From Betaproteobacteria bacterium (GTDB lineage Bacteria > Pseudomonadota > Gammaproteobacteria > Burkholderiales > Usitatibacteraceae): a DNA stretch of 43,170 nucleotides. The DNA lies in assembly GCA_031401935.1 (NCBI GenBank), contig JANNRY010000456.1, positions 1 through 43,170 on the forward strand. Direction: 5' to 3'. Positions 26,327-29,300 of the stretch are shown in pieces (the first letter of the stretch is position 1; the number at the start of each line of letters is the position of its first letter). The position numbers and the translations under genes were made by a program. Below the pieces are notes generated by a model. The model saw only the letters and a program-made list of their open reading frames with translations, was not told the origin of the DNA and did no database searches.

Positions 26327-29300
26327 ATGAAACAACAGAAAATTTCTTCGGTACGTTCGGTGTTTAGCCTTTTTGCGGCTGGCTTGGCGACCATCGGCGT
26401 ACTGGCGACGAGCGGTAGCGTACTCGCTGCAGCGACGCCGCTGGCTGATACCCCAGTTCGCGCCACGTCAAAGGTACCCGCCAACGTAATGCTCGCCCTA
26501 TCAGTCGAGTGGCCCACCGGAGTGGTGCAAGCCTACAACGACGAAGTGAACGCTACTTGCCCTGGACGTGGCAATGCCGACCCAACCGTCGCTGCTGCGA
26601 GCGGCAGCACGTCAAATACTGCCGACAGTATTTGCTACGTCGCGACCAAGACTTATATCGGCTATTTCGATCCGTTCAAGTGCTACAACTACGACACCAC
26701 GGGTAATTATTTTGTGCCCGTCAGCTACACGATTGGTGCCAGCGCTGCGTTACCCAATGCAGGATTAAAAACCTGTGCAGGGCAGTGGAGTGGCAACTTC
26801 CTGAACTGGGCAACGATGCAAACCACCGATATGTTCCGGTGGGCGATGACCGGTGGAGATCGTTTCATTGACACATCGACGCTTACCGTATTGGAAAAAG
26901 CGCGCCATGACGGCAAAGGCGGGTTCGACCAGTTTCCATTGAAGCGATTGGGAGGCGTAACGATCGGTGCTGGCGCTAACGCCGTGACACCGGTGGCACC
27001 ATCAACGGTGACCCCGTTTATGTCCGCGAATGTGTATTTCCGTACACAGGGTTTGAATACTGTCATGTGGGTATCGGCTAACCGCGCACTGCTGAGAAAC
27101 AATAATCATCCGAATAGTAATAACCCCAATAATGACCTGACGTTACCGGCGGTAAGCTTTGATGAGGCCGGACTGTGCGGAGCCATTCCTGGTTGCATTC
27201 AGATATCCACGTTGGATCCCGGAACGCGGCGTATCTCGATCGACACCACTCTCACAAATGAATCAGGTCAGTGCGCAGCAGCACCACCGAATGTGGGTTG
27301 CGTAAATACATCTGCACCCGGTGGCGGTATTGCCAATGTGGCGCGAAATGAAACGGCAAATGACGCAGCGGGCTTGTGCCCGGCGAACGGTGGCATTATC
27401 GCAGGTGCCTTTATTTCCTGTACGCAGACTAGCTCTGGCCAAAGAGAAGTAAGTTATCGTGAAAATGGTACTTGTCCCGGAACTCTTTCGACGATCGTTC
27501 CTCCAGGTGCCACGAACATCACCTGTCAAAACCGGACTGGGCCAAGACGTGACGTTTACTACCGATTGACCACGCAATGTAATGGGCTGGCGGCGAGCGG
27601 CACACAAATCAATTTTTCGTGTAACAATCGGTCGCAGGCAACGCGTCAGGTGACGCGCGCGGAGGTAGGCCAATGCGGATTGACAATTGCTGGAGGATTC
27701 GCAAGTTGCAATCAAGTTGTTGCTGGTACGCCCGGCACACGCACTGCGACGTATCGCACCACGACTGATCAGGCAGGCCAGTGCGCTACCTATGTTGGTG
27801 TCGGTACCTGTGCCAATTTGACAGCACCGGGTGGTGGCGCAGACGTTCGTCGCGTGCTCGGACCATTGCCCGGTGTCACCCCTTACTACATTCGTGTGAA
27901 AGTGTGCGATCAGGCTGCTTTCCCTGAGACACAAACGACTTGTACGCTTTACAGCAACGGTACTAGTTACAAGCCAACCGGCACCATTCAGGAAAATGCC
28001 CTGAACATGCGGTTTGGCGCGTTCGGTTATCTCCTCGACAACGGTGCCACCCGCGATGGAGGTGTGCTGCGGGCAAAAATGAAAGACGTGGGTCCATTGA
28101 AGGCGGTTCCGCAAAATCCGCCTGTAGCCAATGCTGCTGCCGAGTGGAGCGCTACCGATGGCACCTACGTCAATAATCCTGATTCAGCCGATGCGACTGC
28201 AACTGGCTTTAGTGCCACCAACAGCGGCGTGATCAATTATCTGAACAAGTTCGGGCGGAGGGGTGGCTATAAGGATTTCGATCCGGTTAGTGAGATGTAC
28301 GCGGAAGTCATCAAGTACTTCAAGGCGCAAGGCAGAACACCCACAACCACCTATGTCAGTGGCTTGACCAATACTTTGGTGGATGGATTTCCCGTGATCA
28401 CCGCCTGGAACGATCCCATTCAGTACAGTTGCCAGCAAAATTTCGTGATTGGTATTGCTGACGCGAATACTCACAAGGACAAAAATCTGAACGGCGGTAT
28501 CGTGAATGCGGAAAGTGAGCCAGCAGCCGTTCCAGGCAACATCGATACCGGCTACAACGTCACAACAATTACGAATGCAGTGGGCGCGCTTGAGGCAGCA
28601 CTCGTTGCGCCCATCTCAAATCCGAGCGGTGGAACCGTCGGCGCTAACTTGGCGACGCTACGTAATTGCTGCAACGGTACCGCCTTTCTCGCCGGCTTGG
28701 CCTACTACGCGCACACGACAGATTTGCGGGCGGACTACGACAACGGGCCAGATTTGACTGCCCCCCAACCACAGATACTAACTTCATTTTTTGTCGATGT
28801 TCGGGAGGCGGGAAGCTGGGGAACGACCGGCGACCCGCGCAACCAACTTTGGCTCGCGGCAAAGTATGGCGGATTCAAGGACAACAACAAGAACGGCGTG
28901 TTCGATGTACTCGATTCGTGGGCTGATGCTGCTCAGGGCATCGTGCAAGGCAGACCAGTGCCAAAAAATTACTTTGCCGCCAATCAACCTGAAAAACTGG
29001 TGGACGGCTTGCAGCGCGCGTTCCGGGAAATCAACGGGATAAACGGTTCCGGTGCAGGGGTAGGTGTGGCCGCGTCAAATCTTTCGCAGACGACGGGCGA
29101 AAACGGAATTTATCAGGTTAAGTTTGACACCACAGATTGGAGCGGAACGGTCTCGGGCGCAGTAATAGATAGTATTGATCAAACAACTGGCGCGATTACA
29201 CTCAAAGCACCTGCGTTCGAATCTGGTGCGTTGCTGCTAGCCAAGGCTGCAGGCACTGGCTGGGATACCGGTAGAGTGATGGTGACGGCGGTTCCAGGGG

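Follow-up and report, generated by a model that had tools for sequence, protein, structure and literature searches.

In two reports, the PilC/PilY1 proteins are described as adhesins located at the pilus tip (PMC13533445, PMC8833165), and in one of them the family is placed there through an interaction of its C-terminal part with minor pilins (PMC13533445). In long, cysteine-rich PilY1 clades of the Myxococcota, longer proteins also have more cysteines, with a median of up to 41, and these residues were proposed to form disulfides that stabilize extended extracellular domains (PMC13190605, 2026). The main text of this survey does not contain the word 'repeat', and accordingly no tandem unit is described there. 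Here we analyzed a stretch of 43,170 nucleotides from an uncultured betaproteobacterium (the whole of NCBI contig JANNRY010000456.1; hereafter the window), which encodes a PilY1-like protein of 1584 amino acids with an array of seven tandem two-cysteine units in its N-terminal half. To our knowledge, the N-terminal halves of PilY1 and PilC proteins are poorly understood and without a solved structure.

Short tandem units of a β-hairpin and a loop, variable in copy number, build the extended ligand-binding surfaces of the choline-binding and cell-wall-binding repeats and of the clostridial toxin CROPs (combined repetitive oligopeptides). The array is like these solenoids in its predicted content of one hairpin per unit, but differs from them in that it lacks a Pfam match and conserved aromatic residues and has a predicted disulfide in each unit, which is absent from those repeats. 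The disulfide loop of the type IV pilin D-region is similar in size to the loops of the array family (5-23 intervening residues); however, it is a single C-terminal loop of the pilin fold, whereas the arrays consist of 7-21 tandem loops in a non-pilin protein and show no sequence similarity to it. Short threonine-rich repeats with one disulfide each also form the antifreeze β-helix of Tenebrio molitor, with a period of 12. A kinship with this protein was rejected, as hhalign against one Tenebrio sequence returned a probability of 0.5 % and the period of the array is about 32.

Results

The region at positions 27158-27865 of the window corresponds to residues 278-513 of the PilY1 open reading frame (ORF). 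The protein contains 24 cysteines, 14 of which fall within this segment and ten elsewhere (hypergeometric P = 9e-7), and no 236-amino-acid window with 14 cysteines was obtained in 5000 residue permutations (maximum 13). The 14 cysteines are arranged in seven pairs (284/290, 316/325, 351/365, 383/400, 418/432, 450/461, and 486/495) with 5-16 residues between the partners, so that the counts given in an earlier note on this DNA, made by eye, were correct. For the seven units, the consensus reads G-Q-C-(loop of 5-16)-[ST]-C-[TS]-[NQ]-x(2-9)-G-T-R-x-V-x-R-x-E. To assess the relatedness of the seven units, their mean pairwise local BLOSUM62 score was determined. It amounted to 29.4, compared with 19.7±1.0 when each unit was shuffled and 20.1±1.0 when only the non-cysteine residues were shuffled. 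Since the latter difference corresponds to a z of about 9 with the cysteines held fixed, the units are related beyond composition and cysteine positions. An independent unit profile was built from 142 units of distant relatives, with the query and its ≥72 %-identical relatives left out. This profile recovered exactly seven units in the query (residues 282-311, 314-347, 349-382, 381-410, 417-448, 448-483, and 484-510) and scored the array segment at 83.1 bits, while the best of 500 shuffles reached 5.9 bits. The tandem array of seven two-cysteine units that had been read from the translation is therefore supported by statistics as well as by an independent set of units.

The array is polar and rich in T/G/A/S/P, contains neither lysine nor tryptophan, and has a low content of tyrosine (2.1 %) and phenylalanine (1.7 %). 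No DNA-level tandem repeats were found in the window, and in the 21-unit gene of the related locus L002 Tandem Repeats Finder reported only a 12-nucleotide repeat of 2.2 copies, well upstream of the array. Because no repeat is left at the nucleotide level, the unit duplications are old and not the result of recent slippage.

We then mapped the conserved flanks of the array in 120 full-length homologues. Most of these, with 1250-1350 amino acids, connect the flanks directly, and the array-less relatives have 0-16 residues at the junction. The closest array-less relative has 1337 amino acids, compared with 1584 in the protein studied here, and the insert of 251 amino acids accounts for essentially all of the extra length, as the earlier note had surmised. 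In a small clade, the inserts contain 2, 14, 18, 22, 26, 28, 30, or 42 cysteines, corresponding to 1, 7, 9, 11, 13, 14, 15, or 21 units, and the number of cysteines per array is even in every case. The smallest insert, that of P0021, consists of one unit with exactly two cysteines. Among relatives the copy number thus varies from 0 to 21 units at one site. In total, the unit family comprises 191 units in 20 proteins, with a length of 24-46 amino acids (median 32) and a difference of 6-24 between the positions of the two cysteines. Its consensus is G-Q-C-P-(loop)-[ST]-C-[TS]-[NQ]-x(2-9)-G-T-R-x-[VY]-x-[VR]-x-E-[NPA], in which both cysteines are invariant. No unit was found with the profile in 101 array-less homologues.

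The first two and the last two units are orthologous between proteins, and expansion has therefore taken place internally. In the query, unit 1 is the orthologue of the first unit, and unit 7 that of the last unit, in every array. Unit 7 also resembles unit 1 as well as the single unit present in P0021. The two terminal units are nearly identical copies and share the motif C-A-x-Y-x-G-x-G-T-C. In units 13-18 of P0010 (L002, positions 6001-11973), near-identical long-loop and short-loop units alternate (GQCPxGxPPxGTTxGxCSNVGxPxRTVVRTEN / GTCATVAxGxxSCxxAxxGxRxxTxLEx), so that two-unit blocks appear, at the protein level, to have been duplicated recently. In a neighbor-joining tree calculated from 985 post-array columns, without bootstrap support values, all array-bearing proteins form one clade. 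The array-less proteins P0011, P0018, and P0020 lie inside this clade and adjoin 7-, 11-, and 9-unit proteins, which implies at least three independent complete losses of the array.

Other modules occupy the same position in other homologues. A PA14 domain is located between the same flanks in P0109 (residues 222-344) and P0115, and an F5/8-type-C (discoidin) domain in P0086 (residues 288-359). The shared insertion point is bordered by the N-terminal host segment on one side and by the ...[YF][YF]VRVKVC... strand on the other. In these homologues the insert is a single globular domain of ~150 amino acids from a known carbohydrate-binding family, in contrast to the variable number of ~32-amino-acid two-cysteine units found here. 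The common insertion point of the PA14 and discoidin domains suggests that the array site is a permissive display site for accessory modules. No paper mentioning PilY1 together with a PA14 domain was found. A further homologue, P0105, carries a 103-amino-acid insert without family assignment at the array site.

On the upstream side, the insertion point directly follows an Asn-rich linker (residues 257-277, RNNNHPNSNNPNNDLTLPAVS; 27095..27157, + strand) with low to moderate values of the predicted local distance difference test (pLDDT). The earlier note had placed such a linker in front of the array, and it is indeed present; however, it also occurs in the array-less relatives P0011 and P0018 and is therefore host sequence rather than part of the array. 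On the downstream side, the array is followed by a host strand and a host cysteine pair (residues 514-541, ...TPYYIRVKVCDQAAFPETQTTC...; 27866..27949, + strand; pLDDT 92-97). This pair, 527/539, was rejected as an eighth unit, as it is kept in all 120 homologues including the array-less ones.

We next asked whether the unit belongs to a described domain family. In Pfam, the query segment gave only a noise match (FIBL-2, E 0.27) and the 21-unit array of P0010 gave no match at E ≤ 1; likewise, no NCBIfam family matched the query segment. PF28373, which is precomputed on these proteins, was rejected as the array family since it is present on array-less members as well. A profile search of PDB sequences (hmmsearch) returned only noise (E ≥ 0.05). 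When 1.84 billion representative proteins were searched with the unit profile, matches were limited to three PilY1 clusters of this betaproteobacterial clade and P0121, and no other PilY1/PilC family was matched at E ≤ 0.001; this search detects arrays and not single units, one unit scoring about 15-35 bits. P0121, the sole match outside PilY1, is a cysteine-free Bap-like giant adhesin that aligns to profile positions 18-32 only, and it was rejected as compositional. The absence of such an array from the characterized PilY1 and PilC proteins, which the earlier note had suggested, agrees with these searches. A word-index search of 5.8 billion proteins with the 284-amino-acid array segment also gave no match, but this null is an artefact and was not used: local phmmer with the same segment matched P0001-P0022 with E values down to 4e-162, and 90 %-identical proteins are present in the database. 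Pattern scans of metagenomes and genomes added only one and three further loci, respectively. The unit family is thus rare, and no environmental pattern was drawn from the scans. All carriers are uncultured betaproteobacterial metagenome-assembled genomes (MAGs) or metagenome contigs. The unit family is real, statistically solid, and previously undescribed, and within these searches it occurs only in a small clade of PilY1 proteins from betaproteobacteria. As only three betaproteobacterial PilY1 clusters were matched among 1.84 billion representatives, any likeness to the cysteine-rich PilY1 proteins of the Myxococcota would be analogous and not homologous.

The structure of the array was predicted with AlphaFold2 in two runs that differed in alignment and context. 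The first covered residues 250-545 with 10 orthologues (mean pLDDT 64, predicted template modeling score (pTM) 0.40), and the second covered residues 30-1060 with 95 homologues (mean pLDDT 81.7, pTM 0.74, array pLDDT 45-81). The two runs agreed on a pair of β-strands in each unit. The second cysteine is part of strand A (e.g., FISCTQTS), strand B corresponds to the G-T-R...E segment (e.g., REVSYREN), and the first cysteine comes right after strand B of the preceding unit. Each unit is therefore predicted, with moderate confidence, to form a β-hairpin. Over both runs, the array pLDDT of 45-92 is only moderate and falls below 60 in parts. Foldseek searches of the PDB with both models gave nothing at E ≤ 0.001, with query-normalized template modeling (TM) scores of ≤ 0.15 for the array, a model of moderate confidence, and ≤ 0.06 for the 1031-residue model. 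A single match of the array model in BFVD (E 9.6e-4, probability 0.30, TM 0.12) was treated as noise. No vWA match was obtained by Foldseek with the large N-terminal model, and the host domain is accordingly not claimed as vWA.

All units are encoded on the + strand. Unit 1 comprises residues 282-313 (27170..27265), with predicted strands at 290-294 and 300-313; unit 2, residues 314-348 (27266..27370), with strands at 324-329 and 335-343; and unit 3, residues 349-380 (27371..27466), with strands at 362-369 and 373-380. Unit 4, the weakest match to the profile, extends over residues 381-415 (27467..27571; strands 396-403 and 407-414) and is followed by unit 5 at residues 416-447 (27572..27667; strands 428-434 and 439-447). 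Units 6 and 7 occupy residues 448-483 (27668..27775; strands 458-465 and 471-483) and 484-513 (27776..27865; strands 494-499 and 507-512), respectively. The cysteine pairs listed above belong to units 1 to 7 in that order.

Every array cysteine is kept in the nine 7-unit orthologues (40-90 % identity). Consecutive cysteines are the ones that periplasmic DsbA pairs on Sec-exported chains, and the two cysteines of each unit probably form a disulfide with one another. In the insert of P0021 a disulfide could form only within the unit, since it holds exactly one cysteine pair. Disulfide-stapled units are consistent with the conservation of the cysteines, their even numbers, the single pair of P0021, the predicted signal peptide of the host protein, and the predicted hairpins. 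Because the first cysteine lies right after strand B of the preceding unit, such a disulfide would brace each hairpin to its predecessor.

To evaluate selection on the array, we compared the gene with that of the 93 %-identical orthologue L001. The ratio of nonsynonymous to synonymous substitution rates (dN/dS) was 0.109 in the array and 0.054-0.076 in the rest of the protein; within the array, it was 0.13 in the loops and 0.10 at non-loop positions. In the nine 7-unit orthologues, the loops between the two cysteines were the most variable part of the unit in both sequence and length, with an identity of 0.38 and 21 % gaps compared with 0.51 and 7 % in the rest of the unit. The identity to P0012 was 43 % in the array and 60-70 % in the host, showing that the array diverges faster. 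Given the purifying selection, the conserved cysteines, and this faster divergence, the array appears to be constrained and functional, yet less constrained than the core.

The arrays of P0001-P0022 are enriched in N-x-[ST] sequons, with 133 counted in 190 units compared with 74.8±7.8 in shuffles. Most of this excess can be traced to a conserved motif, C-[TS]-N-x-[TS], that follows the second cysteine. In the query, the array (27170-27865) holds nine of the 21 sequons of the protein. The sequon Asn could be a structural cap or a glycosylation site; no glycosyltransferase gene was found within the 43-kb window.

The gene encoding the host protein, a type IV pilus tip adhesin and assembly factor (pilY1; 26327..31081, + strand), was assigned to the PilY1 family on the basis of a Pfam match to the PilY1 β-propeller PF05567 (E 1.6e-33), a match to PDB 3HX6, the C-terminal domain of P. 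aeruginosa PilY1 (E 9.7e-27), and its position at the end of a minor-pilin operon. The C-terminal β-propeller domain covers residues 1054-1414 (29486..30568, +). A Sec signal peptide is predicted at about residues 1-34 (26327..26428, +; cleavage at ...GSVLA/AATP), where a basic n-region, a hydrophobic core, and an A-x-A-like site can be read by eye from the translation. The propeller and the operon position, together with the conserved N-terminal PilY1 motifs common to the 120 homologues, make the host protein similar to the tip adhesins PilY1 of P. aeruginosa (3HX6) and PilC of Neisseria and Kingella, from which it is set apart by the two-cysteine array. With the Neisseria-type PilC equivalog (NCBIfam NF040838), it scored 66.4 bits in the propeller part only and did not reach the cut-off of 350 bits.

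Five ORFs directly upstream of pilY1 on the same strand (22872..26293, +) code for minor pilins, namely a ComP_DUS-type pilin, a GspH/FimT-like pilin, a PilV-like pilin, PilW, and PilX, as indicated by Pfam matches to N_methyl, ComP_DUS, GspH, PilW, and, weakly, PilX. The pilY1 gene is the last of this operon, and the gene order is kept in relatives. The first pilin (22872-23318, +) matches ComP_DUS with 30 bits at a cut-off of 27.3, and the same was observed in relatives. ComP_DUS is the family of DNA-uptake-sequence receptor pilins, and this pilin could connect the minor-pilin set with DNA uptake. The position right after pilY1 is where a pilE-type pilin is usually expected. Here, a 229-amino-acid ORF (31142-31831, +) lies directly 3' of pilY1, and its product combines a TonB_C-like domain (E 1.9e-5) with a hydrophobic stretch at the N-terminus; an equally long gene is found behind pilY1 in the relatives L002, L003, and L004.

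The divergent neighbor of the minor-pilin operon is dsbD (20132-22441, -), with DsbD_N, DsbD_TM, and thioredoxin-like domains. Its start as called (22441) overlaps a tRNA gene, so that the true start lies further downstream. A link between dsbD and the many predicted disulfides of the array was rejected, as the same neighborhood is found with the array-less P0127 and with the 21-unit P0010 and thus represents conserved synteny. Two tRNA genes (22435-22506 and 22543-22615, -) are located between dsbD and the pilin operon, and a third lies at 9374-9444 (+). An antisense ORF of 283 amino acids (27263-28114, -) overlaps the array region and is taken to be a shadow ORF because it lies inside a conserved + strand coding region under purifying selection. 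Around this locus, the window holds ordinary chromosomal genes (rpoN, lptAB, hprK, rapZ, mutY, thiG, ispH, lspA, ileS, ribF, murJ, argD, and argF).

Discussion

The reading we prefer, with a probability of roughly 45 %, is that the array serves as a display module, braced by disulfides and variable in copy number, at a site where the adhesin tolerates insertions. Residues 282-513 form a cassette that is specific to the lineage and consists of seven homologous modules, each of ~32 residues; it was inserted into the N-terminal, non-propeller half of PilY1 at this putatively permissive site. Each module may fold into a β-hairpin, with strand A (...[ST]-C-[TS]-[NQ]) holding the second cysteine and strand B formed by G-T-R-x-V-x-R-x-E. 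The loop leading into the hairpin would be closed by a disulfide between the two consecutive cysteines of the module, and this disulfide would link each hairpin, at its end, to strand A of the hairpin that follows. The outcome would be a covalently braced, protease-resistant excursion from the body of the adhesin, on which a row of variable, proline/glycine-rich disulfide loops is presented on a conserved scaffold. As such, the array could provide a repetitive, multivalent contact surface of the tip adhesin. Avidity and reach would be set by the number of units, which ranges from 0 to 21 among relatives and changes by internal duplication, collapse, or precise loss. An excursion from the host body is the better reading compared with an in-line rigid stalk carrying distal cargo, because array-less proteins bridge the flanks with 0-16 residues and the host model is confident on either side of the array. 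By analogy, the PA14 and discoidin domains at the same site favor a role in binding or display.

Several observations weigh against this reading. No ligand is known and the array has no recognizable binding motif; it is devoid of tryptophan and poor in tyrosine and phenylalanine, unlike classical carbohydrate-binding repeats. The confidence of the AlphaFold models is only moderate in the array, and the packing between units is not reliable (pLDDT 64 and pTM 0.40 in the first run). The dN/dS values come from one sequence pair only, and the source is an uncultured MAG, so that no phenotype is available. Finally, the array was lost completely at least three times and is thus dispensable for the core role of PilY1.

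A more far-reaching proposal, which we regard as distinctly unlikely, is that the units adopt a new fold in which disulfide-stapled β-hairpins build a ribbon or solenoid with a Thr/Arg/Glu ladder. This fold would act as the substrate-binding face of the tip, and the cassette as an evolutionary adhesion switch. Candidate substrates would be periodic surfaces, for instance polysaccharides, minerals, or the envelope of another cell. Recombination between the first and the last unit could leave a single unit, as in P0021, or remove the array altogether, and expansion would come from duplications of two units inside the array, of the kind seen in P0010. The acquisition of PA14 or discoidin modules at the site would be an alternative.

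The display module has to be weighed against a number of other explanations, the most credible of which, though still unlikely, is an inert length tuner or stalk, i.e., a stiff spacer without binding specificity of its own that projects part of PilY1 (e.g., residues 36-260). Conserved terminal units, internal expansion, and a copy number of 1 to 21 are typical of adhesin stalk repeats, and the polar composition as well as the dispensability of the array in three lineages fit this explanation. However, the short junctions of array-less relatives and the high confidence of both flanks in one host model (pTM 0.74) point to a predicted loop-out with no cargo at its far end. Moreover, a dN/dS of 0.11 together with conserved non-cysteine motifs (GTR...E and C-T-N) indicates more constraint than bare length would need, and true binding domains are present at the same site in other homologues. 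An in-line stalk is hence less likely than a display module. It seems improbable that the array is a mechanical element, in which disulfide-clamped hairpins buffer or sense force during pilus retraction and limit or grade the extension of the adhesin, even though one disulfide per about 32 residues would keep 7-18 residues per unit from extending. Two reports connect PilY1 cysteines and the N-terminal part of the protein with force sensing (PMC13190605 citing Webster et al., 2022; PMC11891296). The analogy would be to the mechanosensing that has been proposed to depend on cysteines in the vWA region of PilY1. Nevertheless, a looped-out array would be in the force path only if it were itself the point of attachment, it has no homology to the vWA cysteines, and its complete loss is tolerated.

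Just as improbable is a shield or glycan scaffold, possibly N-glycosylated, that acts as a decoy or mask and hides the conserved tip from pilus-specific phages, proteases, or grazers. The enrichment of sequons in the arrays, with nine in the query, and the fact that the array is the fastest-evolving part of the protein would agree with such a role, but the window encodes no glycosyltransferase, the sequon Asn may be a mere structural cap, and a dN/dS well below 1 gives no sign of an arms race. The lack of any Pfam, PDB, or Foldseek match and a pLDDT below 60 in parts of the array would also be expected of a compositionally biased, disordered insertion with a fortuitous cysteine pattern and no function. 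This explanation is already disfavored and very improbable in view of the strong repeat statistics, the invariance of the cysteines across orthologues, the purifying selection, and the existence of 191 homologous units in 20 proteins.

PilY1 and PilC proteins decide which targets are bound by the type IV pilus tip and take part in surface sensing. No neighbor of the two-cysteine unit was found in Pfam, the PDB, or Foldseek, and the unit might stand for a domain family, and perhaps a repeat fold, that has not been described before. If the more far-reaching proposal of a new fold and an adhesion switch is true, these bacteria would have in PilY1 a 'plug-in' adhesin of modular design. Experimental work is limited in practice by the fact that the carriers are uncultured and the family is rare. 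Nonetheless, the clade represents a natural allelic series at one site in proteins that are otherwise alike, with 0, 1, 7, 9, 11, 13, 14, 15, and 21 copies in addition to the PA14 and discoidin alternatives, which would allow a direct test of how the size and nature of a tip module affect adhesion, twitching, and force sensing.

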